Source: Polyangiales bacterium (GTDB lineage Bacteria > Myxococcota_A > Polyangia > Polyangiales > Ga0077539). From it: 64,000 nt of DNA. The notes beneath the pieces are model-generated. The model was not told the DNA's origin. It worked only from the letters and a program-made list of their open reading frames with translations, and ran no database searches. Positions 420-48,901 of the stretch are shown one piece after another. The number at the start of each line of letters is the position of its first letter. The stretch's first letter is position 1. The translations under genes and the position numbers were made by a program. Location: positions 20,163-84,162 of the forward strand of contig JAXLYG010000005.1 in the NCBI GenBank assembly GCA_046351535.1. Reading direction: 5' to 3'.

Positions 420-1037
420 TCACCCGCCGTCGAGACGCTGCGCTTCGAGCGTCGTGATCGTCAGCGAGTACCCCATCCAGCCGTTGCGAAACTCCACCAC
501 GCGCGGGGGCGTGTCGCCCTCCATGCCGCCCTCGTAGCGCACGTCGATGGTGCTCGCGGGAACGCCGTCGAGCCGTCGGAAGTGACGCTCCATGAGCCTC
601 CCCGCGCGCCACACCTCGCGGATCTCTTCACCATCGCGCGTGCCTCTGCGCTCACCGTCGACGGCGGGCGCGGGGCCGAGCCCGATGAAGAGCGTGCGGT
701 GGATGTCGAGCAGCATGTACCGCGGCGGAAAGGGGAGCTCGCCCGGCATGTGCGACGTGAAGCTCACCTCGGTTCCGCGCTGCTGGAGCACGAACGCGCG
801 CGTGCCGAAGGGCGTGAGGCCGAGGAGCGTGAGCGTGTCTCCCTGCTTCTGGAGCACGGCGTCGAAGGACACGTCGCGCCCCGGATAGTGCGCCTCGACG
901 CGCTGCCGAAACATGAACGCGCCGCGGATCTCCGACGTGGGGAGGAGCGTCCCCGGATGCGTCACGACAGGCATCGCGGGCGGCCGTCGCGAGGCGCACG
1001 CGAGCGCGAGACACGCGGCGAGGATCGATCGCTTCAC
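420..1037 (-). CDS. Lipoprotein, last gene of the APE-like operon (position of the DUF3261/ApeN-type protein)
   Basis: GTG start at 1037 is preceded by GGAGG and overlaps the MMPL stop (GTGA). The N-terminus VKRSILAACLALACAS is a signal peptide with a lipobox Cys. 205 aa. Confidence 0.75.
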   Translation of the reverse strand: MKRSILAACLALACASRRPPAMPVVTHPGTLLPTSEIRGAFMFRQRVEAHYPGRDVSFDAVLQKQGDTLTLLGLTPFGTRAFVLQQRGTEVSFTSHMPGELPFPPRYMLLDIHRTLFIGLGPAPAVDGERRGTRDGEEIREVWRAGRLMERHFRRLDGVPASTIDVRYEGGMEGDTPPRVVEFRNGWMGYSLTITTLEAQRLDGG

Positions 1038-3400
1038 GGTGACCTCCGCGCCGAGAGGAGGTGATGCGTGGCGGGCGCGAGCAGCATGCTGAAGGTGAGC
1101 CCGACGCCGGTGGTGAGCCCGATCGCGCGCAGCGACGGGTTCGACGACACCGCGAGGAGTCCGAACGAGAGCAGCGCCGAGGCCCACGCCACGGTCACGC
1201 TGAGCAGCGTCTCGGAGGTCGCCTCGGGGTGTCGCGTGGTCTCGGCCACGAAGATCCCATAGTCGACGCCGGTGCTCAGCACCATGAGCAGGCCGAGCAG
1301 GTGCATGAGGTTGGCGGGGATTCCGAGGAGGCCCACGACGGCGATCGCGGTGGCGCCCGCGAGCACCGATGGGGCGAAGGCCGCGAGCGAGGTGCCGATC
1401 GTACGGTACCGAACGAACAGCATCAGGAGCACCGCGCCGAGCCCCGCGACGATGACCTCCAACGTGCGACGGCGATATCGCCCGTAGGTCTCGCGGAGAA
1501 AGAGCGACTGGTCGAAGTACGCCACGCCGTCGAGGTCGCCGACGCGCGCCGCCACGGCCCTCGCGTCACGCACGCCTTCGAGAAAGGTCAGATACCCCAC
1601 GCGCTCCCCGACGCGCACGCGGAAGGGCCGCGCGAGCTCGATGAGGGGCGTGCGCGCAAGGGTCTCCCAGGTGAGCGCTTCGGGGGCGGGCTCTGCGAGC
1701 GCGCGGGTGAATCCGTCGAGCGCGCCCGCGCGAAATCCCTCGCGCTCGAAGGCCGCGGCGGCTCTCCCGGCGAGGCGAGGCGAGGCGCGCACGAGGTCCT
1801 CGTTGCGGCGTTGCAGATCGCGCGACCACAGCATCGCGTGAAGCGACCGGAAGGCCCGCACGTCACCCGCGGCGCGCGCGTCGGCGAGGCGCATCGCGAC
1901 GCGGTCGTTGCGCTGGAGGGCCTCCTCATCGGTGGCGCCCGTGGCGATCACGAAGCGCCCCTCGTCGAGCCGCGAGACCAGCGCGCGGACCTCGCGCTCC
2001 TCGCGCATCATCGCGGGGTCGACCTCGGTGAGCGCGCGCGCGTCGTCGACCCAGCGCACCCGCGGAATCCCCACGACGCAGAGCAGGAGCGCCGTGAGGG
2101 GGACCACCAGCGCGAGGCCCCTCCGCCGTCGCAGCGCGTCGACCGCGCGCGTCACGGCGTCGGCCAGCGCGCGCTGAAACCTCACCGGGATGGGCTCCTT
2201 CGGGAGCAGCGGCGCCACGAGGTAGCGCGTCGCGAGGAGCGCCCCGCCGACGCCGAAGGTGGCGAACACGGCGATCTCGCGCAGCCCGGGGAAGCTCGTG
2301 TACGCGAGGCCCGCGAGGCCCGCCATCGTCGTGAGCGCGCCGAGCCGCACGGCGGGCCACACGCGCATGAGCGTCGCGTGCGGCCCCTCGGGCGACGGGC
2401 GCAGCGTGTGGTGGTTGATGAGAAACACCGGGTAGTCGAAGCACACGCCGATGAGCGACGCGCCGAACGCGAGCGTGAGCCCGTGCAGCTTGCCGAACAC
2501 CGCGAGGCCCGCGGTCATCGCGACGAGCATCCCCGCGCCGAGCGGGAGCGACGCGAGCACGAGGTACCGCAGCGACCTGTGGATGAGCATGAAGAGCGCG
2601 ACGACGCCCGCGGTCGAGAGGATCGAGATGCGCTCGGTGTCTCCGCGGATCTGCCCTTCTGCAGCGACGGCGATGCGATGCGCGCCGCTCTGTCGCAAGC
2701 GGAGCGCGTGGGCGTGGGCGCCGTTCACGCGCTCGAAGGCGCGGTTGATCGCGGCGATGAACGGGCGCTGTCGCGCGCCATCGAAGGCCGAGTGGCGCGT
2801 CGCGAGAAAGATCACGCCGTCGCGTCCGTCGGCGGAGACGAACTGCCCGTCGCGCAGCGTGAGGGCGCCCGCCTGCGCGCTTCGAAGCCGCGTGAGCTCG
2901 GTGAGAAAGCCGAGGAGAGGGTCGCTCCCCGCGACGCGCGCGACGAGCGTTCCTGCGGGGGAGGCGAGCTGGCGTTTGACCTCGCGCGCGGCGTCGACGA
3001 GGCCCGCGTCGGTGAGCCTCGCGGGGAGTTCCTCTTCGGGTCGATCGGAGAGGAACGCGTGCCTCCGCGGGAACCACACGTCGTGGAAGGCGCGCTCCAT
3101 CGAGGGGTCGACGCCCGCGCGCAGCCACGCCACCTCGGGGTTCGCGCGCAGCGCGTCGGCGAGCTCCCTCGCGGAGGTCGCGGCGGTCTCTGCGTCGGGC
3201 GCTCCGACGGCGAGCACCATCGTGCGAGAGAGCTCGCTCTCGGCCACGGCGCGCGAGACCCACGCGAGGCGCGCGTCCTCGCCCGCGGGGAGAAAGTGGG
3301 TGATCTCGTTGCCGACGCGCATCCGTCGCGCGGAGAAGATCGCCATCGCGGCGAGGAGCGCGAAGCCCGCGATGAGCTGAGTGCGTTCTCGTCGTTGCAT
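1034..3400 (-). CDS. MMPL/RND-superfamily exporter (ApeM-like)
   Basis: 788 aa with an N-terminal TM segment and two multi-TM bundles (..LGAGMLVAMTAGLAVFGKLHGLTLAFGASLIGVCFDYPVF.. and ..LLGLLMVLSTGVDYGIFVAE..) separated by large soluble loops. It sits after the LolA-like gene. Confidence 0.85.
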   Translation of the reverse strand: MQRRERTQLIAGFALLAAMAIFSARRMRVGNEITHFLPAGEDARLAWVSRAVAESELSRTMVLAVGAPDAETAATSARELADALRANPEVAWLRAGVDPSMERAFHDVWFPRRHAFLSDRPEEELPARLTDAGLVDAAREVKRQLASPAGTLVARVAGSDPLLGFLTELTRLRSAQAGALTLRDGQFVSADGRDGVIFLATRHSAFDGARQRPFIAAINRAFERVNGAHAHALRLRQSGAHRIAVAAEGQIRGDTERISILSTAGVVALFMLIHRSLRYLVLASLPLGAGMLVAMTAGLAVFGKLHGLTLAFGASLIGVCFDYPVFLINHHTLRPSPEGPHATLMRVWPAVRLGALTTMAGLAGLAYTSFPGLREIAVFATFGVGGALLATRYLVAPLLPKEPIPVRFQRALADAVTRAVDALRRRRGLALVVPLTALLLCVVGIPRVRWVDDARALTEVDPAMMREEREVRALVSRLDEGRFVIATGATDEEALQRNDRVAMRLADARAAGDVRAFRSLHAMLWSRDLQRRNEDLVRASPRLAGRAAAAFEREGFRAGALDGFTRALAEPAPEALTWETLARTPLIELARPFRVRVGERVGYLTFLEGVRDARAVAARVGDLDGVAYFDQSLFLRETYGRYRRRTLEVIVAGLGAVLLMLFVRYRTIGTSLAAFAPSVLAGATAIAVVGLLGIPANLMHLLGLLMVLSTGVDYGIFVAETTRHPEATSETLLSVTVAWASALLSFGLLAVSSNPSLRAIGLTTGVGLTFSMLLAPATHHLLSARRSP

Positions 3401-3415
3401 CGGGGCGTCGGGGTC

Positions 3416-4141
3416 TCAGGGCGAGAGTCGAAAGACGCGCGCGGCCTCGTCGGGCGCGTATCTGCGCGCGGCGTCGACCTCGGTGAAGCGCGTCGAGGTC
3501 TCGTCTCCGCTCGTCTCTCGCAGGGTCATCGCGTCGAGGATCACGCCCGCGCCTCGGAGCTCGATGTCGCGGAACACGCGCTGAATGGTGGCCACGCGAG
3601 GACGGAGCGTGAGCGTCCACGCCTCGGGACGCTGCGCGTCGGGGACGCGAAAATCGATCTCGTAGCTCCGCTCCAGGGCCGCACGATCGCCCGCGACGAG
3701 CGCGAGAAAGCTGTCGACGAACTGCCGCACCACGGGCGTCGCGTTCATGTCGATCGACTGCTCTCCGCGGCCATCCCCGAAGCGGAGGTGAGAGCCCTCG
3801 ATGAGCACCGTCGAGGGCGCGGGCGTCGCGGTGCGACGCACGAGGCGAGAGGGCGGCGCGTAGTCGAGGGTCCCTTCGCTCACGAGCGGCGCGGCGAGGA
3901 GCTGCACGCGCTTCTCTTCGCGAAACCGCGCGTGGAGACCGGGCACCGCGGCGAAGCGGCGGAGCAGCGCGTCGAGCGTCACGGGCGCGGCCACGGGCGC
4001 CGCGGGCGCGACGGGCGCGGTCACGGGCGTGCGGGTCGGACGGTTGCGCGGAGGGCGACGCGGCTGCGACGACGCGAGCGCCGAGAGGGCCACGAGCGAC
4101 AGCGCGAGCGCGCTACGCGACGATGCGGGAACGGATGGCAT
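3416..4141 (-). CDS. LolA-like lipoprotein-carrier family protein (ApeL-like)
   Basis: 241 aa with a signal peptide (SALALSLVALSALASS). Its size and its position between the thioesterase and MMPL genes match APE clusters. No diagnostic motif was read, so the call rests mainly on context. Confidence 0.6.
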   Translation of the reverse strand: MPSVPASSRSALALSLVALSALASSQPRRPPRNRPTRTPVTAPVAPAAPVAAPVTLDALLRRFAAVPGLHARFREEKRVQLLAAPLVSEGTLDYAPPSRLVRRTATPAPSTVLIEGSHLRFGDGRGEQSIDMNATPVVRQFVDSFLALVAGDRAALERSYEIDFRVPDAQRPEAWTLTLRPRVATIQRVFRDIELRGAGVILDAMTLRETSGDETSTRFTEVDAARRYAPDEAARVFRLSP

Positions 4142-4508
4142 CGGGGGTCTCCATGAGCAGCTCGCCGGCGGGCGTGGTGGTGACGAGGACGGTGCGCGCC
4201 CGCGCGACGCGGCGGTCGTGCGTGACGCTGTGGAGGTCGTAGAAGACCACGATGCGCTGCTCGACGTCGCCGAAGCGCGCCGTCACGCGCACGCGCTCGC
4301 CGTAGCGCAACGGGCGCATGTAGCGGCAGTGCGCGTCGACGACCATCATGTGAAGGCCGAGCTCCATGAGGTCGGGCACGTCGAGGCGGTGGACGCGCAT
4401 GAGCTCGGTGCGCGCGAGCTCGAGGTACTTGAAGTAGTTGCCGTGCCACACGACGCGCAGCCCGTCGACGTCGTGAAAGGGCACGGTGAGCTCGATGGAG
4501 GCGCTCAC
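4113..4508 (-). CDS. Hotdog-fold acyl-CoA/ACP thioesterase (4HBT/YbgC-like, ApeK-like)
   Basis: GTG start at 4508 overlaps the upstream stop (GTGA). 131 aa. The sequence ..IELTVPFHDVDGLRVVWHGNYFKYLE.. is typical of 4HBT thioesterases. Confidence 0.8.
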   Translation of the reverse strand: MSASIELTVPFHDVDGLRVVWHGNYFKYLELARTELMRVHRLDVPDLMELGLHMMVVDAHCRYMRPLRYGERVRVTARFGDVEQRIVVFYDLHSVTHDRRVARARTVLVTTTPAGELLMETPDAIRSRIVA

Positions 4509-5413
4509 GGCGAGGGCCTCCAGAAGTCGTAGAAGTTGAACCAGTTGTCGGGCGCGAGGCGGCAGTAGTGCTCGAGGCGCTCGGCGTAGCGGCGCGCCCA
4601 CGCGGCGAGGGAAGCGTCGCGGTCGCGTCGATCGACCACGAGCGGATCGGCGAAGGGCTCGCAGTAGAGGTCGTAGCGATCGGGCTCGGTGAACACGCCG
4701 AAGGTGAGGAACACCGGGCACCGCAGCGACGACGCGAGCAGGTACGGCCCCACGGGGAAGAGCGCCTTTCCGCCGAGAAAATCGATCTCCGCGGTGCGCG
4801 CGTTGAGGCCCGTGCGGTCGGCGAGGAGCGCGACGAACTCGCCCCTCTCGACGCGCTCCTTGAGCGCGAGGATGTAGTCGAAGCCCTCGGGCTCGATCTC
4901 GACGACGCGCGTCGACGCCTCGGGGTTCACGGCCGCGAGCGCCGCGTTGATCATCTTCGCGTTGCGAAAGTACCCGACGATGTTGACCGCGAAGTCGCGG
5001 CTGCGCCCCTGGGCGCGCATCGCTTCGAAGCTCCCGAGGTGCGCGCCGATGAGCACGGCCCCTCGGCCCGCCTCACGCGCCGCGCGGAGGTGCTCGGTGC
5101 CGTGGCTCTCGATGGTGAAGAGGTCGCGCCGCCCCTTGAGCAGAAAGAACCGATCGAGCGCGCAGTGCGCGAAGGTCAGCACGTGGCGGTACACGTCACC
5201 GAGCGAGGCGCCGCCGCGGACGCGCGTGAGGTAGTCGCGCGAGCACCGCCGCACGCGCCCGTGGAGCCCCACGTAGTACACGCACAGCGCCGCGAGGAAG
5301 AGCCGCGCGGGGCCGCGCCCGAAGGCCGTGCAGAGCCACACGACGAAGCGGATGCCGAGCACCGCGCCCTTCTCGCGCGTCTCGAGCCAGCCCTTCGGCG
5401 CGTCGTCGCTCAC
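4505..5413 (-). CDS. LpxL/HtrB-like lysophospholipid (lauroyl) acyltransferase
   Basis: GTG start at 5413 overlaps the GT2 stop (GTGA). 302 aa with an N-terminal membrane anchor (GIRFVVWLCTAF..LFLAALCVYYV), consistent with a LABLAT-type acyltransferase. Confidence 0.7.
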   Translation of the reverse strand: MSDDAPKGWLETREKGAVLGIRFVVWLCTAFGRGPARLFLAALCVYYVGLHGRVRRCSRDYLTRVRGGASLGDVYRHVLTFAHCALDRFFLLKGRRDLFTIESHGTEHLRAAREAGRGAVLIGAHLGSFEAMRAQGRSRDFAVNIVGYFRNAKMINAALAAVNPEASTRVVEIEPEGFDYILALKERVERGEFVALLADRTGLNARTAEIDFLGGKALFPVGPYLLASSLRCPVFLTFGVFTEPDRYDLYCEPFADPLVVDRRDRDASLAAWARRYAERLEHYCRLAPDNWFNFYDFWRPSP

Positions 5414-6147
5414 GGCGCCGCCTCCCGTCGCGGCGCGAAGAAGCGCGCGATGCGGGTGAGCATGAGCCGCGTGTGCATCCAGCTGATGAGGGCGTTGTCG
5501 CGCACCATGCGAAAGTGCGACACGCCGCCGTCTTCGCGCGAGATGTAGCGCACGCGCGTCGGGAGGTTGATCACCGGGACGCCCGCCCACACCATGCGCA
5601 CGGCGATCTCGGGGTCGAAGTCCATCGCGTCGCCGCGGGTGTTCGACGCGAGGGCCGCGCGCAGCGGGTACACGCGAAAGCCGCACATGGGGTCGGCGAT
5701 CACGGGTCCGCCCGCCTCGACGTTGGTCCAGAAGCGGGTGATCTCGCGCGCGGCGCGCCGTGATTTGGGCGCGCTCTCGTCGAAGACGGGCTGCCCGAGC
5801 ACCAGCGCCTCGGGCCTCTCGCGCGCGGCTTCGAGGAAGCGCGGGATGTCTTCGAAGGTGTGCTGTCCGTCGGCGTCGACCTGGAGCGCGTGCGTGTACC
5901 CGAGCGCGAGCGCGGCGCGGAAGCCGTCCTTCACGGCGGCTCCCTTTCCCCCGTTCTGCGCGCGTCGGTGGAGGTGCGCGAGGCCCTCCGAGGCGATGGC
6001 GTCGAGCACGGCGCGGGCCTCGGGTCCGCTGCCGTCATCGACGACGACGACGTCGCCGAGGTGCTCCCGCGCGCGCTCGACGACGGCGCGCACGGTGGCG
6101 GGGTTGTTGTACGTGGGGATGAGCACGCAGGGCTTGAACTCGCTCAC
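5410..6147 (-). CDS. Family 2 glycosyltransferase (ApeJ-like)
   Basis: 245 aa. Motifs VLIPTYNNPATV, VVVVDDGSGP and LQVDADGQH (DxD). GTG start overlaps the DH stop. Confidence 0.85.
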   Translation of the reverse strand: MSEFKPCVLIPTYNNPATVRAVVERAREHLGDVVVVDDGSGPEARAVLDAIASEGLAHLHRRAQNGGKGAAVKDGFRAALALGYTHALQVDADGQHTFEDIPRFLEAARERPEALVLGQPVFDESAPKSRRAAREITRFWTNVEAGGPVIADPMCGFRVYPLRAALASNTRGDAMDFDPEIAVRMVWAGVPVINLPTRVRYISREDGGVSHFRMVRDNALISWMHTRLMLTRIARFFAPRREAAP

Positions 6148-6515
6148 GGCGAAGCCTCTCCGAAATGGAGGGTCCCCGCCGAGGCGACGCCTCCTCCGAG
6201 CTCGATGACGAAGGCGACGGCGGCGCGCGCGCGGGTGTGTTCGAGGCGCAGCGAGAGGTCGTCGCCGGGCCTGATGGGCTTGTGAAACTTGAGCTTCGTC
6301 GCGCGTCGGAGCGGGGGCATCGCGGGCCAGGCCCGATGAACGAGCGGCAGCACGAGGTTGTTCAACTGCGCGACGGCGGGTAGCACCGGGTCTCCCTCGA
6401 AGTGCCCGAGGAAGTAGCAGAGCCCCGCGGGGACGTGCACCGCAAAGTCCGCGCGCGCCACGCCGTCGGCCTCGCTCTGCGCCTCGCTGCGCACCTCGAA
6501 CGCGCGCTCATCCAT
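6144..6515 (-). CDS. FabA/FabZ-like hotdog dehydratase (ApeI-like)
   Basis: ATG at 6515, 123 aa. The catalytic-type motif YFLGHFEGDPVLPAV (HFxxxPxxP) is present. Confidence 0.8.
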   Translation of the reverse strand: MDERAFEVRSEAQSEADGVARADFAVHVPAGLCYFLGHFEGDPVLPAVAQLNNLVLPLVHRAWPAMPPLRRATKLKFHKPIRPGDDLSLRLEHTRARAAVAFVIELGGGVASAGTLHFGEASP

Positions 6516-7143
6516 CGCGCACCGCCGTCTCGGTGATGGGCGGAAAGAGCCTCGCCATGAGCCTGTCGTGGGGCGCGTTCCCGTAGCGCCTGAAGCGCAT
6601 CGAGCGGAGCACGTACTCCACCGTGAACATCGCGCCGAGGAGCCCATACGAGAGCGCGCCCGTGTAGAGCGCCCACCACGCGACGGGCGCCGCGAGCGCG
6701 AGCACCGCGGAGACAACAGCGTTCACGGCGAAGAACACACACCACGCGACGGTGACCTTGCGACACCACGCTCTCTCGGGCTCCGAGAGGGTCGCGACCT
6801 GCATCCTCGCGAAGCGCTCGATGATCGGGGTGTCTCCGCGGAGCGTCGCGGCGAAGTGAACGAGCATCGCGGCGTTCACGAGCGAGGGCATCGCGAGCAT
6901 GAAGCGCGCGTCGCGGAGCACCGCGGCGCACAGGGCCAGCGCGCCGATCGTGAGAGGGACCCGCAGCGCGTGGGCGAGGTCGTCGCGGCGGGCGTTCTTC
7001 GCGGCGACGAGGGCGCGCGGGACGGCGACGACGAGCACGGCGAGGCCCACGGCGCGCGGACCCCAGCGGGTCACGCCGAGGTACACCGCGAAGGGGTACG
7101 CGAGCGTGGCGAGCACGCGGAGTGCGATCGCGAGCGCGCGCAT
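6508..7143 (-). CDS. Polytopic membrane protein (COG4648/ApeG-like)
   Basis: ATG at 7143, 211 aa, with several hydrophobic helices (MRALAIALRVLATLAYPFAVYLGV.., ..WCVFFAVNAVVSAVLALAAPVAWWALY..). The upstream part of the track ORF 6508..7899 is rejected as an Arg-rich artefact. Confidence 0.7.
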   Translation of the reverse strand: MRALAIALRVLATLAYPFAVYLGVTRWGPRAVGLAVLVVAVPRALVAAKNARRDDLAHALRVPLTIGALALCAAVLRDARFMLAMPSLVNAAMLVHFAATLRGDTPIIERFARMQVATLSEPERAWCRKVTVAWCVFFAVNAVVSAVLALAAPVAWWALYTGALSYGLLGAMFTVEYVLRSMRFRRYGNAPHDRLMARLFPPITETAVRDG

Positions 7144-7163
7144 CTGCGTAGGGCGGAGTCCCT

Positions 7164-8357
7164 TCAGCTCGCGAGAGACGCCGCGCGATGGGCTTCCCAG
7201 GAGCGCACCATCGAGGCGAGCTCGCCCATGCGGTCGGCCATGTCGTGCGGCGAGCGCCGCGTGGTGTTGTACACGTCGCCCGCGAGGAGCGTCACGATCC
7301 CCATGCGCAGGTAGGGCTTCTGGAGCTCGCGCGGCGCGAGCGCGACGGTCATGAAGTCGTCGGCGTACCAGTGGTCGATGACCTTGCGGAACACGCTCGC
7401 GCCGTCGCAGTACTCGCGCTGCCACGCGTCGAGGTCGCCGCCGTCGAGGGCCGCCGCGAGCTGGCGCGCGCCGTAGAGCCCGAGCAGCACGCCGGAGCTG
7501 AACACCGGGTCGATGAAGGTCGCCGCGTCGCCGCAGAGCGCGAAGCCCTCGCCGTGAAACGTCGTCGAGGTCGCGGTGTAGTCCTGCACGCCGCGGAAGG
7601 GGAAGAGCCGCTCGGCCTCGTCGAGCCGCGCCGTCGCGTCGGGCGACATGGCGATGGCGGCCTTGAAGCGCTCCTCCGCGGTGCCCTTGAGCGGACACGA
7701 CGGAGACATCACCACGCCCACCGAGGCCACGCCTCCGCCGAAGGGAATGATCCAGATCCAGCCGCCGGGGATGCAGCAGATCGTGATGTCGCCGGGCTGG
7801 TCGGGCGCGAGCTGCTTGACGCCCTTGCAGCGCGTTCCGATGGCGGCGTTCTTGAGCCGCGCGTCGCCCACGCGCAGGCCGAGCTTGCGAGAGAGCCACA
7901 TCGTGCGACCGCCCGCGTCGATGATCCGCTCGCCCGTGAGCGAGCCCGCGGAGGTGTCGAGCCGCCGCGCGGCCACGTCGGCGTCGCGCGCCTCGCCGTA
8001 CACGATGCGGCAGCCGGCGGCGCGCGCGGCGTCACGCCAGCGGAGGTCGAAGACCTCGCGCTGCACCTGCCACGCCCACTTGTAGCGAACGGCCTCGGCC
8101 TCGGAGAAGTCGAAGCGCACCGACGCGCCGTCGCGGCAGAACACGGCGCCGTGCTTGACGATGAAGCCGCTCATGTCGAGGCCGCACTCTTCGAAGATGA
8201 GCGTCGAGCCGGGGAGCATCGACTCGCCGACGACGCTCTCGGGACGCTCGACGGACTCGACGAGCGTCACCTTCGCGCCGCGCTTCGAGAGGTAGGTGCC
8301 GAGGGCGCACCCCGTGGGGCCTGCGCCGACGATGACGAAATCGCTCGTGAGGGTCAT
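7164..8357 (-). CDS. Flavin-dependent halogenase (tryptophan-halogenase family)
   Basis: 397 aa. It has an FAD-binding motif VIVGAGPTGCALG, GESMLPGS, and the halogenase signature WxWxIP as GGWIWIIPFG. Confidence 0.8.
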   Translation of the reverse strand: MTLTSDFVIVGAGPTGCALGTYLSKRGAKVTLVESVERPESVVGESMLPGSTLIFEECGLDMSGFIVKHGAVFCRDGASVRFDFSEAEAVRYKWAWQVQREVFDLRWRDAARAAGCRIVYGEARDADVAARRLDTSAGSLTGERIIDAGGRTMWLSRKLGLRVGDARLKNAAIGTRCKGVKQLAPDQPGDITICCIPGGWIWIIPFGGGVASVGVVMSPSCPLKGTAEERFKAAIAMSPDATARLDEAERLFPFRGVQDYTATSTTFHGEGFALCGDAATFIDPVFSSGVLLGLYGARQLAAALDGGDLDAWQREYCDGASVFRKVIDHWYADDFMTVALAPRELQKPYLRMGIVTLLAGDVYNTTRRSPHDMADRMGELASMVRSWEAHRAASLAS

Positions 8358-8605
8358 GTCGCTCCTTGGAGGTTCTTCGCGACGAGGTCGACGAGGTCGG
8401 CCACCGTGCGGATCTTTCGGAGCTCGCGCTCCTCGACGCGGCGGCCGGTCATCTCCTTGACCTTGACGGCCATGTCGATGGCGTCGATGGAGTCGAGCTC
8501 GAGGTCTTCGTAGAGCCTCGCGTCGAGGCGCACGGCGTCGGGGTCGACCTCGAAGCGGTCGACGAGCGTGCGGGCCATCTCGGCGAAGATCTGCTCGCGG
8601 TTCAT
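8354..8605 (-). CDS. Acyl carrier protein
   Basis: 83 aa with the phosphopantetheine site LELDSIDAIDM. ATGA overlaps occur on both sides. Confidence 0.9.
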   Translation of the reverse strand: MNREQIFAEMARTLVDRFEVDPDAVRLDARLYEDLELDSIDAIDMAVKVKEMTGRRVEERELRKIRTVADLVDLVAKNLQGAT

Positions 8606-8868
8606 TTGCCAGCCGGACGGTGCGCCGCGACGTGGGCCGCGAGGGCGCGCACCGAGGCGAAGATCGCGCGGTTGTTCTCGTCGTCGGCGCGGAGCTTCAC
8701 GCCGTAGCGCCGCTCGACGGCCATCGCGAGCTCGAGGGCGTCGATGGAGTCGAGGCCGAGGCCGGTGCCGAAGAGGGCTGCGGCGCTGTCGATCTCCTCG
8801 GGACGCACGCTGTCGAGCATGAGTGACTCGACGATCAGCCGCTTCATTTCGAGTTCGAGGTCTTCCAT
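8602..8868 (-). CDS. Acyl carrier protein
   Basis: 88 aa with the phosphopantetheine site LGLDSIDALEL. Confidence 0.9.
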   Translation of the reverse strand: MEDLELEMKRLIVESLMLDSVRPEEIDSAAALFGTGLGLDSIDALELAMAVERRYGVKLRADDENNRAIFASVRALAAHVAAHRPAGK

Positions 8869-8874
8869 GGCGGA

Positions 8875-9708
8875 TCAGGCTTCTACTCCCTCTTTGGGCG
8901 CATCGGAAGGCGCTGCGGGGACGTCCTCCGGGTGCGCCGCCCGCCAGGCGTCGAGGCGCGCGCGGTACATCTCCTGCGCGGCCTTCGCGAGGCGCCGCGC
9001 GTCGCCGTCGAAGTCCTCGGGGCGCAGCGTGGCGATGGGCTCGACCGCGAGCCGCACGAGGCGCTTGGGCAGCGCGTACCAGGGGACGCCCTTCATCAAC
9101 GTGGGCGGCGTACACGTCACGAGCACGAGCGCCACGGGCACGCCGGCCCTGCACGCGACCTCGAAGGCTCCGCGCCTGAAGCGCCTCACCCCGCCGGGCG
9201 GAGAGCGCGTCCCCTCGGGGAAGATCAGCACGCGGAAGCCCGCCTCGATGCGCTCGATCGCGCCCTGAATCACCGCCGCGCCCGACATCGCGGCGCCCTC
9301 TCCCGCGTCGATGTGCCAGCACGCGCGGAGGATCCGTCCGACGAAGGGGTTCTCGAAGAGGTCGCTGCGCACGACGGTGCACGCGCCGCCGAGGGCTGCG
9401 CCGAGGGCCGTCACGTCGACCAGCGTGGGGTGATTCGCCACGACCACGCAGGGTCCCTCGGGGAGGCTCAGCGACACCTCGCGCGGGTCGTACCGCATGA
9501 GCCGCAGGTGGTGCATGAGCGCGTGAAACTGCTTGAATCCACGGCTGATGAGGCTCTGCGCGCGGCGCACGCGCTCGCGCTCGTCGGTGACGCCGCGGCG
9601 CGCGAGCGGCAGGAGCGCGTACGACAGCACCAGCGATCCGACGCCGAAGTACACGAACATCGCGCCGATCAAGACGAGGCGTACGATCCATTCGAGGGGG
9701 CGCAGCAT
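8875..9708 (-). CDS. 1-acyl-sn-glycerol-3-phosphate acyltransferase family (LPLAT, ApeD-like)
   Basis: 277 aa with an N-terminal TM segment, the HX4D motif NHPTLVD, and FPEGTRS. Confidence 0.85.
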   Translation of the reverse strand: MLRPLEWIVRLVLIGAMFVYFGVGSLVLSYALLPLARRGVTDERERVRRAQSLISRGFKQFHALMHHLRLMRYDPREVSLSLPEGPCVVVANHPTLVDVTALGAALGGACTVVRSDLFENPFVGRILRACWHIDAGEGAAMSGAAVIQGAIERIEAGFRVLIFPEGTRSPPGGVRRFRRGAFEVACRAGVPVALVLVTCTPPTLMKGVPWYALPKRLVRLAVEPIATLRPEDFDGDARRLAKAAQEMYRARLDAWRAAHPEDVPAAPSDAPKEGVEA

Positions 9709-9759
9709 CGGCGTGTCGTCCAGCGCGGCGCGAGTGATATCACACGCGCTCCGCGGCCG

Positions 9760-10587
9760 TCAGCGACACAGGCGCAGCGCGCCCAGGCGCCCCGAGGCGC
9801 AGCGGACCTCGTGTTCGAAGCGCGCTTCTCGGGAAGGGTCATCGAGCCACGCGGCGAGCTCCACCGCGCCCGACGCGCCGAGCCAGTCGGGGTGCGCGTC
9901 GTCGCCGCCGTCGTGCGCACGGAGCGAAGCGTGTTCGAGCGTCGCGAGGGGCGCACGGCCGCGCGCGCGTACGGCCTCGACAGGTTCGAGCACGAGCGCG
10001 ACGACGGCCTCCGCGGCAGCGGGTTGCGCGCGTTCGGAGCGCAGCCGCGCGCGGTCGGGGCCGAGGGTGTCTCCCGCGATGACGAGGGCTCCCTCTGCGC
10101 GGCCGAGGGCGATGGCGCGACGGGCCTCGACGAGCGCGGCGACGGCCGACGCGCGCCCTGCCATCACGGTCGTCGCGTGGCCTCTCACGCCGAGCGCGAT
10201 GGCGATCTCGCCCGCGGGCGCCGACGGAATCGTCTGCGCGAAGAGGATCGGGGATGCCCCCTCGGCGCCGCGCTCCACGAGCCCGCGGTGGTATCGCTCG
10301 TTGACCTCGGCACAACCGAGCGCGGTGCCCACCACGACGGCGAGCGACCGCACGCGATCGGCTTCAATCTCCGCGCGAGAGAGCGCCCGCTGCGCCACGA
10401 GGAGCGCGTGGGCGCTCGCGCGATCCATGCGACCCGTGCGCTCGGGCGCGGCGGGCCAGAGCGCGCGAATGGAGGCCGTGATGCGCGAGGTCTTCACGCC
10501 GTCGACCTCGGCCCAGCGCGGCGCGCGCGGAGCCCCTTCGCCTGCGGCCGAGAGCGCGGCCCACGCGGTGATCGCGAGGTCGCTCAC
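9760..10587 (-). CDS. Beta-ketoacyl synthase-like protein lacking the active-site Cys (chain-length-factor-like)
   Basis: GTG at 10587 overlaps the KS stop (GTGA). 275 aa. The stretch TTVMAGRASAVAALVEA aligns with the KS stretch VSTACTSSAAALMQA, placing Arg where the catalytic Cys would be. Confidence 0.75.
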   Translation of the reverse strand: MSDLAITAWAALSAAGEGAPRAPRWAEVDGVKTSRITASIRALWPAAPERTGRMDRASAHALLVAQRALSRAEIEADRVRSLAVVVGTALGCAEVNERYHRGLVERGAEGASPILFAQTIPSAPAGEIAIALGVRGHATTVMAGRASAVAALVEARRAIALGRAEGALVIAGDTLGPDRARLRSERAQPAAAEAVVALVLEPVEAVRARGRAPLATLEHASLRAHDGGDDAHPDWLGASGAVELAAWLDDPSREARFEHEVRCASGRLGALRLCR

Positions 10588-11774
10588 GGGGCACCGATCA
10601 CGAGCGCGGTGTTGTGTCCCGCCATCGCGGCGTTGAGCGAGAGCGCGACGCCCTCTCGCATCGCCGTGGGCGCGGGGTCGACGGTGAGCCACGCGAGCGA
10701 AGGGTCACGCTCCCGCGGCGTGTGCGTCGGCGGACGTACGCGGTGACGCAGCGCCTCGACGCAGAGCGCGACCTCGACGAGCCCCGAGGCGCCGAGGGTG
10801 TGTCCCGTCACGGGCTTCAAGCCGTGTACGGGCGGCGCCGTGTCGCCGAAGACCGCTCGCAGCGCGGCGGCCTCCATCGCGTCGTTGAAGCGCGTCGAGG
10901 TCGCGTGCGCGCTCACCCACGCGACGTCGGCGTTCGATGCGTTCGCCTCGCGCAGCGCGTGTGTGACGGCCCGCGCGAGCCCGGCCCCCGTGCGATCGGG
11001 CGCGGTCATGTGAACGCCGTCGCCCGAGGTTCCGCCGCCGAGGTAGCGCGCCACCGCGGGGCCGTCGCGCGTGAGGAGCACCGCGGCCGCGGCCTCGCCG
11101 AGCCACATGCCCGCGCGATCCACGGCGAAGGGAGCGGGCGGCGCCGTGTCGGGCGTGAGCGCGCAGAGCCGATCGAAGCCCGCGTGGACGAAGCGGCAGA
11201 GCACATCGACGCCGATCACCAGCGCGGCGTCGATCTCGCCGAGCCGCAGCGCGTCGGCGGCCTGCATGAGCGCGGCTGCCGAAGAGGTACACGCGGTGCT
11301 CACGGTGACCACCTCGCCGCGAAGTCCGAGGGCGCGCGCCACGGCGGGCGCGGTGTCGTCGTGGCCCACGCGCGAGGGCGCGACGGGAAGCGCCTCTCCG
11401 CGCGTGAGGGCGCGGTGCCAGGGCTCCCACGCGACGACAGCGCCGAGGCTCGTCCCGACGAAGAGGGCGGTGTCGGGCGAGAGCGCTTGACCGCGGAGCG
11501 CGTCGTCGACGGCGGCGAGCGCGAGCTGCGTGGCGCGGTCGAGGCCGGGCCAGCGCGCGTCGATGGCGGCCCAGATCGACGGCGCGATGAGGGCCGCGTT
11601 GCGCACCGCGAAATCGTGGGTGTCGTAGCGGTCGACGGGGGCGGCGAGGGGCGCGGCGGCGAGGGTGGCGCGCCAGAGGGCGTCGAGGCCCACGCCCGCG
11701 GCGGAGACCGCGCCGACGCGACGGATCGAGAGCGGCGCGCGCGCGTGTGTGGCGTCGGGCTTCTCGTGGGTCAT
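10584..11774 (-). CDS. Beta-ketoacyl-ACP synthase (type II KS)
   Basis: 396 aa. The Cys-His-His triad context is present: VSTACTSS, SAHATSTRFND, VTGHTLGASG. Confidence 0.9.
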   Translation of the reverse strand: MTHEKPDATHARAPLSIRRVGAVSAAGVGLDALWRATLAAAPLAAPVDRYDTHDFAVRNAALIAPSIWAAIDARWPGLDRATQLALAAVDDALRGQALSPDTALFVGTSLGAVVAWEPWHRALTRGEALPVAPSRVGHDDTAPAVARALGLRGEVVTVSTACTSSAAALMQAADALRLGEIDAALVIGVDVLCRFVHAGFDRLCALTPDTAPPAPFAVDRAGMWLGEAAAAVLLTRDGPAVARYLGGGTSGDGVHMTAPDRTGAGLARAVTHALREANASNADVAWVSAHATSTRFNDAMEAAALRAVFGDTAPPVHGLKPVTGHTLGASGLVEVALCVEALRHRVRPPTHTPRERDPSLAWLTVDPAPTAMREGVALSLNAAMAGHNTALVIGAP

Positions 11775-11895
11775 CGGCGGGGTGCCGGCGACGCTACGAC
11801 CGCGCGAAATGCGGCGTCAACGGAGACCCTCGGACGAAGGCCGCCGGGTCGCTGGCGGCGCAGCGAGAAACCGCGCAGAATCCCGGGCTGCGCTT

Positions 11896-12861
11896 ATGAA
11901 CGTACGAACGATCGCGTGGGTAGGCATGGCGGTGGCCTCGCTCGGATGCGCGAGCACCGTCGACGGGACCTGGGGCAGCGCGCGGGACGCCGGTCGCGAC
12001 GTGCCGCCGGGGGTGAACCCCACGGGCGTAGACCCGTTTCGGCCCGTCGACGCGGGGCCGATCCTCGTCGATGGGAGCACCGACACGGGGACGTGGCAGC
12101 TCCCCGACGCGTCGGTCTTCGACCAGCGCTACGCGTACCTCTACGTCGGGAGCTACCTCAACACGGGCCTCGAAGGGGCCTATGCGAGCGCGGAGTTCCG
12201 GTTGTTTCCGAGGCCCGAAGACACGCGCTGCGAGTACGTGAGCGCGGGCAACTGGGACATGCTCACCTGCGACGAGGAGGCCGAGGCCCCGCGCGACACG
12301 CACCCGGAGCCCTTCCCCCAAGCGGGTCCCATCACCGTTCGCGGCGGCACCGAGCCCGTCTCGCTCAACCCCAACCGCAACGGGCAGTACGCGTACTTCT
12401 ACGAGCCGCGCCCCGTGTTTCACGGCCCCGCTCGCATCGAGATCCGCGCCGTCGGCACGGCCTCCGTGCCCGCGTTCTCGGTCATGGTCGACGTGCCGTC
12501 GCCCCTCACGCTCACGTCCCCGGTCATCACCCGCGGCGTGCCCGTCCCCATCTCGACGACCCAGGACCTCACGATCTCGTGGGTGCCCTCCGACGCGCGG
12601 TCGATCTACGTGAACATCTCTGCGATCGGCCGTGTTTCAGGGCGTCGCCACTCGGTGCGCGCGCTCGCGGAGTTCCCCGGCGCGGCGGGTCGAGGCACCA
12701 TCCCCGCCCGCGCGCTGCGGGCCTTCACCACGCTCTCGGCGTTGGAGTCTCAGAACTTCAGCGTGTCGCCGCAGAACCTCAGCACGCAGCGCATCGGCGC
12801 CTGGCCCGTGCAGGTCACCACCTCGGGCCTCGGCGTCAGCGTCGACGCCTCGATCCGCTGA
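11896..12861 (+). CDS. Lipoprotein, function unknown
   Basis: ATG at 11896. The N-terminus MNVRTIAWVGMAVASLGCAS is a signal peptide with a lipobox. 321 aa with high GC3. Confidence 0.75.
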   Translation: MNVRTIAWVGMAVASLGCASTVDGTWGSARDAGRDVPPGVNPTGVDPFRPVDAGPILVDGSTDTGTWQLPDASVFDQRYAYLYVGSYLNTGLEGAYASAEFRLFPRPEDTRCEYVSAGNWDMLTCDEEAEAPRDTHPEPFPQAGPITVRGGTEPVSLNPNRNGQYAYFYEPRPVFHGPARIEIRAVGTASVPAFSVMVDVPSPLTLTSPVITRGVPVPISTTQDLTISWVPSDARSIYVNISAIGRVSGRRHSVRALAEFPGAAGRGTIPARALRAFTTLSALESQNFSVSPQNLSTQRIGAWPVQVTTSGLGVSVDASIR

Positions 12862-41966: not shown

Positions 41967-42032
41967 TCGGTCGTCTCGCCGTGGGTGTCCTTGCGTTGGC
42001 GGTCATGTAGCGACTAGCCTCCGCGCGCTTTC

Positions 42033-43499
42033 ATGCGCAGACCGCTCACACGCCTCGCAATCACCGCCGCGCTCGCTGCCTCTCTCGGGGCCTGCTCCGA
42101 GAACAACGGCACCGATCCCCCGACGGATCGCTTCTTCTTCCCCACCGCGCTCGCGCTTCATCGCCCGACCGCGGGCGCGAGGGCCGACTACCTCTACGTC
42201 ACCAACTCCGACTTCGACCTCGCCTACAACGGCAGCACCGTCGTGCAGGTCGCGCTCTCGCCGGTCGACCAGCTCCGCACGCAGCTCGCCGCCGTCAACG
42301 ACGCGTGCCGCATGACGCCGAGCGCGTGCAGCGACACGGCGACCGCGAGCCTCCAGGTGCGCAGCGGCATGCCCGCCGTCACCGTGCGCTGCACCCGCGA
42401 CTTCGAAGCGCGCGACGCGTGGCTCTGCCCCGACGCGCCGCTCATCCTCAGCGACCGCACGCGCAAGCTCAACCCCTACGCCGTCGAGGCCTCGCTCGCG
42501 ACCTACCGCAACGGCGCGCAGCGGCTCTACGTGATCGTCCGCGGGGGCAACTCGCTCGCGTGGTTCGACGTGCAGCCCGACGGCACCCTCGACTGCGGAC
42601 CCGCCGACGAGCGGGGCTACTGCTCGGCCACGCACTACGCGGGCAACGACCCCGCGCAGAGCCCCGGCGGCCTCGTGCTCCCGCAGGAGTCGTCGCAGCT
42701 CTCGGTCGACCCCGACCGCGGCTGGATCGTGATGACCCACCAGAGCTTCACGCTCGACGTCGCCCACGCGTCGCTCCTGCGAGACCCCATCGCGGAGTCC
42801 GCCACCACGCAGTCACCAGGGCCCGCGCTCGTGAGCACCCTCGGCGGAATCTCCGCGGGGCTGAGCTCCCTGGTGCTCCTCCCGCGCGCCGCGATGGGCG
42901 ACCGCAGCACGTGGCTCGCCACGAGCCGCGCCGAGTCGGTCTTCACACTGCTGCAGGCCTACGAGGGCACCGCGTCGCTCGGCGACAACAGGGCCTTCCT
43001 CTACCGCGCCGCCGCCGCGCCCGTGACGGGGCTCAACACCGGCACCAACAACCGCGCGATCGCGCTCGACCCCGCGCCGGGCGCCGCCTCGCGCAGGGCC
43101 TACGTCGTCAGCCGCAGCCCCGAGGCCCTCCTCACCGTCGACATCTCGAACCCCTCGGCGCCGTCGGTCATCGACGCCACGGCCATCCCGCAGGGACCCT
43201 CGCGCCTCGTCGCCGTGTGGCACCTGTCGATCGGCCACACGTACGTGTACGCCGTCTCGTACGACACCCGCTGGATCTACGTCGTCGACCCGTCGGAGCA
43301 CCGCGTGGTCGCGCAGATCGCCACGCTCCGCGGGCCGCACAACCTCGCCTACGACGAGGTCGACGGGATGCTCTACGTCATCGACTTCCTCGACTCGGCC
43401 ATCGAGGTGATCGACCTGCGCCCCGAGCTCAACGGCGCGGCCAACCCCTCGTTCAACCGACGCGTGCTCACCTTCGGGCGCCCGGGACGCGGAGCCTGA
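42033..43499 (+). CDS. Lipoprotein, probable beta-propeller (YVTN/YncE-like repeats)
   Basis: Signal/lipobox MRRPLTRLAITAALAASLGAC. Recurrent (L)YV-x-(N/S/D) strand motifs: DYLYVTNSDFD, RLYVIVRGGNS, AYVVSRSPEA, TYVYAVSYDT, MLYVIDFLDS. Confidence 0.75.
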   Translation: MRRPLTRLAITAALAASLGACSENNGTDPPTDRFFFPTALALHRPTAGARADYLYVTNSDFDLAYNGSTVVQVALSPVDQLRTQLAAVNDACRMTPSACSDTATASLQVRSGMPAVTVRCTRDFEARDAWLCPDAPLILSDRTRKLNPYAVEASLATYRNGAQRLYVIVRGGNSLAWFDVQPDGTLDCGPADERGYCSATHYAGNDPAQSPGGLVLPQESSQLSVDPDRGWIVMTHQSFTLDVAHASLLRDPIAESATTQSPGPALVSTLGGISAGLSSLVLLPRAAMGDRSTWLATSRAESVFTLLQAYEGTASLGDNRAFLYRAAAAPVTGLNTGTNNRAIALDPAPGAASRRAYVVSRSPEALLTVDISNPSAPSVIDATAIPQGPSRLVAVWHLSIGHTYVYAVSYDTRWIYVVDPSEHRVVAQIATLRGPHNLAYDEVDGMLYVIDFLDSAIEVIDLRPELNGAANPSFNRRVLTFGRPGRGA

Positions 43500-43502
43500 T
43501 CG

Positions 43503-46085: not shown

Positions 46086-46116
46086 CCGATCGCCCACAAC
46101 CTCCTCGCGTCGCACG

Positions 46117-47847: not shown

Positions 47848-47899
47848 ATCCCGAGCGCGTCGGGGCTCTTCTTCCGGCGCGCCACCGCGGCGCTCGGGG

Positions 47900-48100
47900 C
47901 TGATCCATCGACACGCGCCCGACGCCGGCGCCCGCGTCCAGCGCGTCGTGCGCGGCGGATCGTGGTGGTGCGGGCAGGGGACCTGCGACGGCTTCGGGCG
48001 CTGGTACCGCGGCCACGACGACCCCGCGTCGGCGTTCTCGAACCTCGGGTTTCGCTGCGCGTACGACGGTCGCGCGCCTCGGGTAGACTCCGCGCGATGA
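47900..48100 (+). pseudogene. Relic of the C-terminal end of an FGE/SUMF1 (formylglycine-generating-enzyme-like) domain
   Basis: The frame ending at TGA 48098-48100 reads ..RVQRVVRGGSWWCGQGTCDGFGRWYRGHDDPASAFSNLGFRCAYDGRAPRVDSAR*. The pattern RGGSW...R...P...GFRCA is the canonical C-terminus of FGE-sulfatase domains. The ~250 aa that normally precede it are absent. The only in-frame start nearby is GTG at 47948 (50 aa). Confidence 0.55.
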
Positions 48101-48834
48101 CCGCGCGCACACGCAGATCGCCCGACGCGAACGACGACGTACGGAAGCAGTGGCTCCTCCGCGTCGAGGCCGAGTACCGCTCGGCGACGCTCACGCAGGA
48201 GCTCACCCTCTGGCTCATGCAGGCCGGCGTCTCGCCCGACCTCATTCGCGACGGGCTGCGCATCGTCGAAGACGAGATCGTCCACGCGGAGCTCAGCATG
48301 GAGACCTACGTCGCCGCGGGCGGAGTGGGCGGACCCACCATCGCGCGCGAGACGCTCTCGCACGCGAGGCACCACGGAGAGAGCCTCGAAGCGGAGATCA
48401 CGCGCGTCGCCGTCGATGCGTTCTGCCTCGGTGAGACCGTGGCCGTTCCGCTCTTCAAGAACCTCCGCGAGGGCTGCACCGTGCCCGTGGCGCGACGAGC
48501 GCTCGACCGCATCCTGCGCGACGAGGTGAGGCACCGCGCGTTCGGGTGGACCCTCCTCGAATGGATGCTCGAGACACCCCACGGACCGGCGCTGCGCGCG
48601 CTCATCGCGCGAGAGCTCGGCACATGGTTCACGCGCATCCGACGGTGCTACGCGCCGGCCTACGCGGAACGCATGGAGTCCATCGGCGAGGTCGACCGCG
48701 CCTGGGGGCTCATGGCGCCCGCGCGCTACGGCGCCGTCGTCGAGCGGACGTGGTCGCGTGACTGGAAGCCCCGCTTCGAAAAGCTCCAGATCGACGCGAC
48801 GCCCGCGTGGGAGGCCGCGAAGCGAGGGCCCTGA
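48097..48834 (+). CDS. Ferritin-like di-iron carboxylate protein, function unknown
   Basis: ATG at 48097 overlaps the relic-frame stop (ATGA). 245 aa. Two ExxH motifs (EDEIVHAE, RDEVRHRA) are each preceded by a helix carrying Glu (VEAEYRS, LGETVAV). Confidence 0.7.
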   Translation: MTARTRRSPDANDDVRKQWLLRVEAEYRSATLTQELTLWLMQAGVSPDLIRDGLRIVEDEIVHAELSMETYVAAGGVGGPTIARETLSHARHHGESLEAEITRVAVDAFCLGETVAVPLFKNLREGCTVPVARRALDRILRDEVRHRAFGWTLLEWMLETPHGPALRALIARELGTWFTRIRRCYAPAYAERMESIGEVDRAWGLMAPARYGAVVERTWSRDWKPRFEKLQIDATPAWEAAKRGP

Positions 48835-48901
48835 GGCCGTGCGAAATGGCCTCCGCGCGCGCTTCACAGAACGCCGCTGCGGTCTGTAGAGTCCGCGCCC
48901 C

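Follow-up and report, generated by a model that had tools for sequence, protein, structure and literature searches.

A halogenase-bearing aryl-polyene-like operon in a Polyangiales bacterium as the candidate carrier, anchoring and export part of a pathway split over two operons

In a 64,000-nucleotide stretch from an uncultured Polyangiales bacterium (assembly GCA_046351535.1, contig JAXLYG010000005.1, positions 20,163 to 84,162; this whole stretch is called the window below), an operon of 14 genes resembles the clusters for aryl polyenes (APE) and xanthomonadins and carries a gene of the flavin-dependent halogenase family. We propose, with moderate confidence, that it provides the carriers, the lipid anchoring and the export in a pathway divided between two operons, whose product would be a halogenated APE-type lipid of the outer membrane and whose reductive polyketide synthase (PKS) core would be encoded elsewhere in the genome. 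The canonical core (ApeO-type ketosynthase (KS), ApeC, ApeP, ketoreductase (KR) and ApeR-type KS) would then be a separable operon, supplying the KR and the glutamate-bearing ApeP partner for the ApeI-like dehydratase (DH) subunit of the window. The chain would be built on one acyl carrier protein (ACP1) with malonyl units from a second (ACP2), modified by the halogenase while tethered to ACP1, attached by two acyltransferases and a family 2 glycosyltransferase (GT2) to a glycerolipid/sugar anchor, as in the APE lipids (APELs) of Xenorhabdus doucetiae, and moved to the outer membrane by the MMPL/LolA-like/DUF3261 system. The lipid-assembly and export roles are modelled on those described for the APELs of X. 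doucetiae.

The operon runs on the minus strand from 11774 to 420. The raw open reading frame (ORF) lists of the window, which has ~72% G+C, are crowded with false frames, and genes were called by combining ORF calls with third-position GC (GC3) frame analysis and inspection of start codons. This gave 14 intact co-directional genes, with no frameshifts or internal stops and with catalytic motifs and translational coupling intact. Inspection of the junctions revealed seven 4-nt start/stop overlaps, five of them GTGA (KS/KS', DH/GT2, GT2/LpxL-like, LpxL-like/thioesterase and MMPL/DUF3261) and two ATGA (ACP1/ACP2 and ACP2/halogenase, that is, on either side of the ACP2 gene); further junctions overlap by 8 nt in one case and possibly by 29 nt in another. 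A single minus-strand operon with seven such overlaps had been claimed in the initial annotation, made from the letters alone, and is confirmed here, as are all its gene annotations in Pfam and NCBIfam searches. The genes, in order of transcription, are:

10584..11774, minus strand: KS, 396 aa, intact Cys-His-His triad; Pfam ketoacyl-synt N and C domains
9760..10587, minus strand: KS', truncated KS-like protein, 275 aa, N-terminal KS half only; Pfam ketoacyl-synt 4e-15, Ketoacyl-synt_2 1.6e-6
8875..9708, minus strand: lysophospholipid acyltransferase (LPLAT) of the PlsC type, ApeD-like, 277 aa; Pfam Acyltransferase 4.4e-20, TIGR00530 domain 4e-17
8602..8868, minus strand: ACP1, ApeE-type (chain-carrying); NF006617 113.5 bits (cut-off 70), serine motif LGLDSID
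8354..8605, minus strand: ACP2, ApeF-type (malonyl-shuttling); NF003757 100.8 bits (cut-off 65), serine motif LELDSID
7164..8357, minus strand: flavin-dependent halogenase-family protein, 397 aa; Pfam Trp_halogenase 5e-18
6508..7143, minus strand: polytopic membrane protein in the ApeG position, 211 aa, ~5 hydrophobic segments; hydropathy and position
6144..6515, minus strand: ApeI-type hotdog dehydratase subunit, 123 aa; Pfam FabA 1.2e-6, ApeI-like 4e-4 (below the model cut-off)
5410..6147, minus strand: GT2 glycosyltransferase, 245 aa, counterpart of the glycosyltransferase part of ApeJ; Pfam Glycos_transf_2 1.3e-18
4505..5413, minus strand: LpxL/HtrB-family acyltransferase, 302 aa, counterpart of the acyltransferase part of ApeJ; Pfam Lip_A_acyltrans 3.6e-10
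4113..4508, minus strand: 4HBT/YbgC-type thioesterase, ApeK-like, 131 aa; Pfam 4HBT_2 4.6e-13, 4HBT 5e-12, TIGR00051 1e-16
3416..4141, minus strand: LolA-like periplasmic carrier, ApeL-like, 241 aa, N-terminal signal-like segment; Pfam LolA_3 8e-16
1034..3400, minus strand: MMPL/RND-family exporter, ApeM-like, 788 aa; Pfam MMPL 3e-6
420..1037, minus strand: DUF3261 protein, ApeN/LolB-like, 205 aa, last gene of the operon; Pfam DUF3261 3e-16

The lipid-attachment set (ApeD, ApeJ and ApeK types) is present as judged from the Pfam domains, the HX4D motif of the LPLAT (NHPTLVD) and a gene order matching the proteobacterial one, its activity being predicted. The LpxL-like protein also matches phosphatidylinositol mannoside acyltransferase and LpxL models of NCBIfam below their cut-offs. 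In the export set LolA_3, MMPL and DUF3261 all score above Pfam cut-offs; the LolA-like protein additionally matches the flexirubin LolA2 model at 2e-10, below cut-off, the MMPL protein has two clusters of hydrophobic segments and partial matches to the HpnN and HAE3 models, and the DUF3261 protein has an N-terminal hydrophobic segment and a cysteine. The membrane protein is assigned by hydropathy and position only, with weak sub-threshold matches to the IspA and VC0807 families (Pfam, NCBIfam); a membrane-protein gene holds this position in the related loci L055, L070 and L074 as well (loci compared with the window carry L numbers throughout). The tandem ApeE/ApeF-type ACPs are the most clear-cut, with NF006617 and NF003757 both above cut-off and a DSL-type serine in each. 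The best PDB match of ACP1 is 9LS6 (1.4e-17, well above all other ACPs), which is Acinetobacter baumannii ApeE (PMC12624758), and that of ACP2 is A. baumannii ApeF, 9L1V (8e-20), with all other ACPs far behind.

The likeness in gene set and order to APE and xanthomonadin clusters, proposed in the initial annotation, is borne out by loci of Stenotrophomonas, Duganella and Shewanella, for which halogenase relatives ~30% identical were fetched from reference genomes and annotated with the window proteins. The Stenotrophomonas and Duganella loci share with the window the order LPLAT-ACP-ACP-membrane protein-DH-GT2-LpxL-thioesterase-LolA-MMPL, and the Shewanella loci have the same order without the LpxL-like gene. 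In all three, however, the halogenase gene is located after MMPL, while in the window it sits directly after the ACPs. The S. maltophilia locus (L055, halogenase ~30–33% identical to that of the window) further encodes an aromatic amino-acid lyase, a fusion protein of the AMP-ligase::ApeI type and, after the halogenase and DUF3261 genes, a colinear KS-ApeP-KR-KS block, all of which are lacking in the window. The Xanthomonas pig cluster shares the order block and a Trp_halogenase-family gene, but the features by which xanthomonadin clusters are recognised (XanB2-type chorismatase, XanA2-type ligase, colinear KS-DH-KR-KS block) were not found in the window.

The ape clusters (apeA-R) of E. coli CFT073, X. 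doucetiae and A. baumannii share with the window the tandem ApeE/ApeF ACPs, the ApeI hotdog protein, the ApeD LPLAT, the glycosyltransferase and acyltransferase (ApeJ), the ApeK thioesterase, the membrane protein in the ApeG position, the LolA-like protein, the RND/MMPL exporter and the DUF3261 protein. The window follows the published apeD-apeN order with overlapping frames, except for the inserted halogenase and the absent apeH. ApeJ, described in a preprint as a glycosyl/acyltransferase, corresponds to two genes in the window (GT2 and LpxL-like). Unlike the ape clusters, the window has no ApeH, ApeB methyltransferase, ApeO/ApeC, ApeP, ApeQ or ApeR, and its operon is headed by an extra, non-orthologous KS/KS' pair in which the KS' carries arginine in place of the active-site cysteine.

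How complete is this absence? We scanned the called ORFs between ~12 and 59 kb with Pfam and searched all six-frame ORFs of the whole window by phmmer, using as references the KR, ligase, lyase and ApeP proteins from L055 and L172 (the latter a relative described below); the last three large ORFs (~58.5–64 kb) were screened by phmmer with the reference proteins only, and the methyltransferase had no phmmer reference. For the short-chain dehydrogenase/reductase-type KR (ApeQ), no adh_short or KR domain appeared in the Pfam scans and neither the L055 nor the L172 KR found a phmmer match in the 64-kb window. Neither an AMP-binding ligase (ApeH) nor an aromatic lyase was found in the window by either method; the L055 ligase::ApeI fusion matches only the ApeI-like ORF, via its C-terminal domain. 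No methyltransferase was found in the Pfam scans of the called ORFs, and no Pfam family indicating a XanB2-type chorismatase was present among the scanned ORFs. The sole phmmer match to an ApeP-type dehydratase in the window scores 14 bits (E 0.001) and was treated as noise. The initiating ApeR is likewise absent: the ApeR-type KSs of L055 and L172 match only the single window KS, at 100–104 bits, compared with 140 bits for the L055 ApeO-position KS. A KR or ligase hidden elsewhere in the 64-kb window is rejected by these Pfam and six-frame searches. The lack of a ligase, KR, second DH and methyltransferase noted in the initial annotation is therefore real for the locus and for the whole window (for the methyltransferase by Pfam only), but the gap goes well beyond such accessory steps, as the entire canonical PKS core (ApeO, ApeC, ApeP, ApeQ and ApeR) is missing together with ApeH.

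The gap comprises the entire core because the KS and KS' at the head of the operon, previously taken for the APE core pair, are not ApeO and ApeC. The KS aligns with FabF at the motifs TACTSS, HATST and GHTLG (the E. coli FabF and FabZ guide sequences in our alignments were used only for locating motifs), and it matches the solved ApeO 6QSP_A (2.5e-43) about as well as FabF 1J3N (1.3e-41). It is 42% identical to the ApeO-position KS of L055, 37% to the first, ApeO-type KS of L174 and 32–34% to ApeR-type KSs. In KS' the active-site cysteine is replaced by arginine in the alignment to FabF 1J3N, the arginine being invariant in seven orthologues, and no match to the solved ApeC chains was obtained at E ≤ 0.01. 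The assignment as ApeO/ApeC was rejected on these scores and since the true orthologues are found in a separate sub-cluster in L172, L174 and L175. Because the KS scores alike for ApeO and FabF and KS' has no ApeC match, the two represent a third, extra pair specific to the lineage, and by sequence comparison the window KS is a third KS type, orthologous to neither ApeO nor ApeR. The pair may supply or extend the starter in place of the ApeH ligase.

The relatives of the window halogenase occur in four gene contexts. The closest relatives (L088, L089 and L091, halogenase 84–91% identical) are partial contigs which keep the same gene order over the covered parts and together span all 14 genes. 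In L091 (GCA_039809605.1) the gene after GT2 (7415–7792), where the contig ends, seems to match the window thioesterase (82% identity) rather than the LpxL-like protein, and the latter gene may be missing from, or moved in, this metagenome-assembled genome (MAG). The 14 window proteins are 65–95% identical to their counterparts in these three loci and 46–75% identical to those in L172 and L174. The ratio of nonsynonymous to synonymous substitutions (dN/dS) relative to L088 and L089 is 0.16–0.49 in every one of the 14 genes, with the DH gene the fastest evolving. Since identities and dN/dS are of this order throughout, the operon is no remnant but a functional unit that has been maintained.

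The second context (L172 and L174, metagenome contigs of Myxococcota relatives, halogenase 73–75% identical) is the most informative for the split. Here the same operon as in the window is followed, within ~20 nt, by a convergent five-gene operon, behind the DUF3261 gene, which encodes KS, Ketoacyl-synt_2, ApeP-like, adh_short KR and KS proteins. The first KS of this set matches the solved ApeO chains 7F28_B (7e-76) and 6QSP_A (1.5e-72) far better than FabF (1.5e-51), the KS-like protein matches only solved ApeC chains, and the last KS is 50–52% identical to the KS in the ApeR position of Stenotrophomonas. Judged by homology, the sub-cluster is the canonical APE PKS core (ApeO-type KS, ApeC, ApeP, KR and ApeR-type KS). 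A further arrangement is found in L175 (GCA_023248955.1), a MAG which we take to be of Myxococcota, where, unlike in the window, the five core genes are colinear with an aromatic lyase, the LolA, MMPL and DUF3261 genes and a terminal halogenase gene. The suggestion in the initial annotation that the missing steps might be supplied in trans is thus directly supported by L172 and L174, where the same operon stands beside a convergent KS-ApeC-ApeP-KR-KS set. Two further features of these loci are an upstream polysaccharide deacetylase gene in L172 and, in L174, an O-methyltransferase gene after DUF3261 (11250–12332, minus strand; Methyltransf_2 plus dimerisation domain), which is absent from the window and L089 and hints at a phenolic substrate in L174.

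In the third context (L005, L007 and L173, halogenase 77–82% identical) the KS/KS' pair travels with LPLAT, an ApeE-like ACP and the halogenase, and unrelated genes follow (module at 2299–8163 in L005, 4403–10312 in L007 and 1849–5992 in L173). A gene resembling glycoside hydrolase family 5 comes after the module, which in L005 and L007 is itself immediately preceded by a class II aldolase gene and two genes for EutN/CcmL microcompartment-vertex proteins. In the fourth context (L001, L003 and L008, halogenase 71–74% identical) the genes run ACP, halogenase, DUF2062, polysaccharide deacetylase, KS, FabZ-like DH, amine oxidase, KS and ACP, with no KR in view. This set (9732–19680 in L001) includes a KS of 540 aa, a FabZ-like DH with both His and Glu and a flavoprotein of the amine-oxidase family; a gene in which GT2 and LpxL-like domains are fused (a 600-aa protein in L001) lies on the opposite strand in this context. 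L008 (CAMAWH010000006.1) is titled as a Klebsiella pneumoniae MAG yet carries a Myxococcota-type ACP-halogenase-KS cluster with a halogenase 74% identical to that of the window, and the bin is probably mislabelled or contaminated.

An independent pointer to a missing partner comes from the dehydratase. The hotdog protein of the window matches 3ESI (1e-6) and the 119-aa chain 6QSR_A (1.2e-4), which we take to be X. doucetiae ApeI, and its orthologues in the relatives carry a precomputed ApeI-like Pfam match. It keeps the FabZ histidine (GHFEG) but has asparagine at the position of the FabZ catalytic glutamate; in its orthologues the histidine is kept and the glutamate position is occupied by Asn, or by His in L174. 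The ApeP-like proteins of L055, L172 and L174 show the reverse, lacking the histidine and keeping the glutamate. This split fits the pattern of the ApeI/ApeP heterodimer, which has a single active site (PMC8041823). The window holds only the ApeI-type subunit of such a heterodimer, apart from the noise-level ApeP match mentioned above. Since the ApeI-like gene is under purifying selection with an incomplete set of catalytic residues, its partner is expected to exist somewhere. As to the KR, A. baumannii FabG was unable to replace ApeQ in vitro, deletion of the KR abolishes the pigment in Lysobacter, and most core-gene mutants of E. coli lose pigmentation.

The halogenase defines a clade of its own. 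Its members show at least 56% identity, a few sequences follow at 40–44%, and the next band lies at ~30–35%. The clade is confined to metagenomes and MAGs labelled Myxococcota or Myxococcales. When genome and metagenome contigs were scanned with the halogenase alignment, the matches listed were mostly ~30% identical Bacteroidota and Proteobacteria sequences, with one close locus, L008, among them. In the 34-sequence alignment of the clade, GxGxxG (GAGPTG, residues 11–16 of the window protein), K68, W200xW202xxP205 and GDAAxFxDPxFSSG (in the window protein GDAATFIDPVFSSG, whose key positions do not vary) are all retained; only GxGxxG is in part variable, the rest being invariant. The WxWxIP motif reads GGWIWIIPF, and K68 aligns with the lysines of CmlS and 3NIX; the catalytic lysine is K79 in PrnA and K71 in CmlS. 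The gene has a dN/dS of 0.17–0.29. The best NCBIfam match is CmlS (1e-41, below cut-off), and the PDB matches (E 1e-28 to 1e-43) are 3NIX (4.5e-43), CmlS 3I3L (1.5e-34), PltA, Mpy16/Bmp2-type enzymes and CndH. All of these share with the window protein GxGxxG, the catalytic Lys, WxWxIP and the N-terminal fold region, and a further likeness to the carrier-dependent enzymes is that its gene adjoins a carrier-protein gene; the window protein is shorter (397 aa). CmlS, PltA, Mpy16/Bmp2 and CndH belong to the halogenase subclass acting on carrier-tethered substrates. In all four contexts the halogenase gene lies directly 3' of an ACP gene, abutting it or overlapping by 4 nt, and because of this constant position we propose that the enzyme would act on an ACP1-tethered intermediate. 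As far as its motifs and homologues tell, it is a flavin-dependent enzyme of the carrier-protein class, translationally coupled to the ACPs.

Several observations weigh against a two-operon pathway. The five-gene core is absent from the whole window by both Pfam and six-frame phmmer, nor does it adjoin the operon in L089, which among the relatives whose downstream flank can be seen is the closest; there the operon ends without PKS genes downstream. We infer the presence of the core in this organism's own genome, as we do the halogenation, the substrate and the product of the operon. The L005, L007 and L173 modules have no KR or DH within view, which suggests that the five-gene KS-KS'-LPLAT-ACP-halogenase module can work without the reductive core. 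An aryl starter is also hypothetical, and the other option of the initial annotation, a starter or product unlike those of known APEs, keeps some plausibility, as L172 and L174 showed no AMP-ligase of the ApeH type and no aromatic lyase, either within the locus or next to it.

The same facts are the basis of the strongest alternative, a possibility we nevertheless consider unlikely, in which the operon is autonomous: KS/KS', the ApeE-like ACP, the halogenase and LPLAT would make a halogenated non-aryl acyl chain, put it on a lysolipid and have it exported without a dedicated KR or ApeP, the canonical core having been lost or replaced in this lineage. The chain could be, for example, an α-halogenated β-ketoacyl group, a phenolic derived from a poly-β-keto chain, or a product whose reduction falls to housekeeping FabG/FabZ. 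Apart from the free-standing module, the missing adjacent core and the lack of a ligase or lyase around L172 and L174, such autonomy would agree with purifying selection on all 14 genes and with the presence of CmlS among the closest characterised halogenases, CmlS having been proposed to act on an activated β-keto or enolisable acyl substrate. The APELs of X. doucetiae, moreover, already contain a conjugated fatty acyl chain of non-aryl type, for which assembly on ApeF is presumed. However, the acidic catalytic residue is missing from the ApeI-like subunit, which in characterised systems pairs with ApeP, so that its conservation by selection makes little sense without the partner; the failure of A. 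baumannii FabG to substitute for ApeQ in vitro speaks against a housekeeping reductase; and in the relatives L172 and L174 the full core does stand beside the same operon. In its most far-reaching form, which we hold to be doubtful, KS-KS'(Cys to Arg)-LPLAT-ApeE-like ACP-halogenase would be an autonomous, undescribed module which assembles an acyl chain, halogenates it and loads it directly onto a lysolipid, all without a dedicated reductase, and has replaced the canonical PKS in the window lineage, with the Ape machinery delivering a halogenated non-aryl lipid to the outer membrane.

A different objection concerns the halogenase itself, which could be a flavoprotein that alters the ACP-bound chain in some other way, for instance by hydroxylating it or by reducing or desaturating it, leaving the product halogen-free. 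There are indeed sub-threshold NCBIfam matches to models of the geranylgeranyl reductase family and of the QhpG monooxygenase, the best PDB match, 3NIX, is an uncharacterised Cytophaga hutchinsonii 'flavoprotein/dehydrogenase', and the halogenase function of the clade is a prediction from sequence. We think this improbable, since the Lys, WxWxIP and flavin adenine dinucleotide-binding motifs which define flavin-dependent halogenases are invariant in the clade, nearly all other significant solved homologues are halogenases, and the presence of a homologous halogenase gene tracks bromination of the pigment when Xanthomonas is compared with Lysobacter. Finally, that the operon is a decaying APE remnant which has lost its PKS core and makes no product, as the absence of the core, ligase and KR from the window and the fast evolution of the DH gene could indicate, is very hard to believe, given the intact frames, motifs and translational coupling, the gene order kept over the covered parts of L088, L089 and L091, and the identities and dN/dS values across all 14 genes, on which a pseudogenised remnant was rejected.

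The proposed half-pathway operon is delimited as the initial annotation had it, by a divergent lipoprotein gene on one side, starting at 11896, and by a convergent gene on the other, ending at 372:

11896..12861, plus strand: divergent lipoprotein-like gene, 321 aa; same gene at this position in L088 and L091
1..372, plus strand: 3' end of a convergent gene for a Cys-rich protein; frame +3, GC3 0.92, stop at 370–372

Only 420 nt of DNA downstream of the operon are visible in the window. The convergent gene occupies the slot of the ApeR-type KS in L172 and L174, but phmmer with the reference KSs showed it to be unlike any of them. A core operon may still lie outside the window, a few kilobases past coordinate 1, although the convergent gene directly adjoining is no KS. 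Its Cys-rich product has a duplicated motif, GNT(L/F)ACR(T/L)YH...(T)THC(T/P)H. The divergent lipoprotein-like protein matched no Pfam or NCBIfam family. Its gene is strongly conserved upstream of the KS gene in L088 and L091, separated from the operon by 121 bp, and it may be a functional member of the operon or share its promoter region. A promoter and terminator consensus scan at the operon gave no informative signal in this 72% GC DNA.

On present evidence the locus is a rearranged form of the known APE pathway and not a categorically new system. 'Aryl polyene' clusters of uncultured Myxococcota have been listed before in surveys of the antiSMASH type (PMC11821767). Neither the split architecture nor the extra KS/KS'(Arg) pair, the ACP-adjacent halogenase clade or the missing ApeH-type loader was found described in the literature, and a search combining DUF3261, LolA, MMPL and halogenase returned nothing. 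In uncultured Myxococcota the carrier/anchoring/export half and the reductive PKS core appear as separate operons, which may be adjacent, colinear or unlinked, and single-locus cluster predictors may call such loci 'incomplete' or mis-assign the KS pair. The locus is a useful lead for genome mining: the distinct halogenase clade, always beside an ApeE-type ACP, and the extra KS/KS' pair are candidates for the making of new halogenated membrane lipids, and if the module were autonomous it would be a new route to them.

Elsewhere in the window, a 1220-aa ORF (48890–52552, plus strand) combines a major facilitator superfamily transporter with a spermidine/spermine-synthase-like domain and C-terminal tetratricopeptide repeats. 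Upstream of it (42018–48834, plus strand) lie four co-directional ORFs of ~490, 860, 760 and 330 aa, measured stop to stop, which have high third-position GC and match no Pfam family; the third overlaps the second and its real length is probably ~560 aa.

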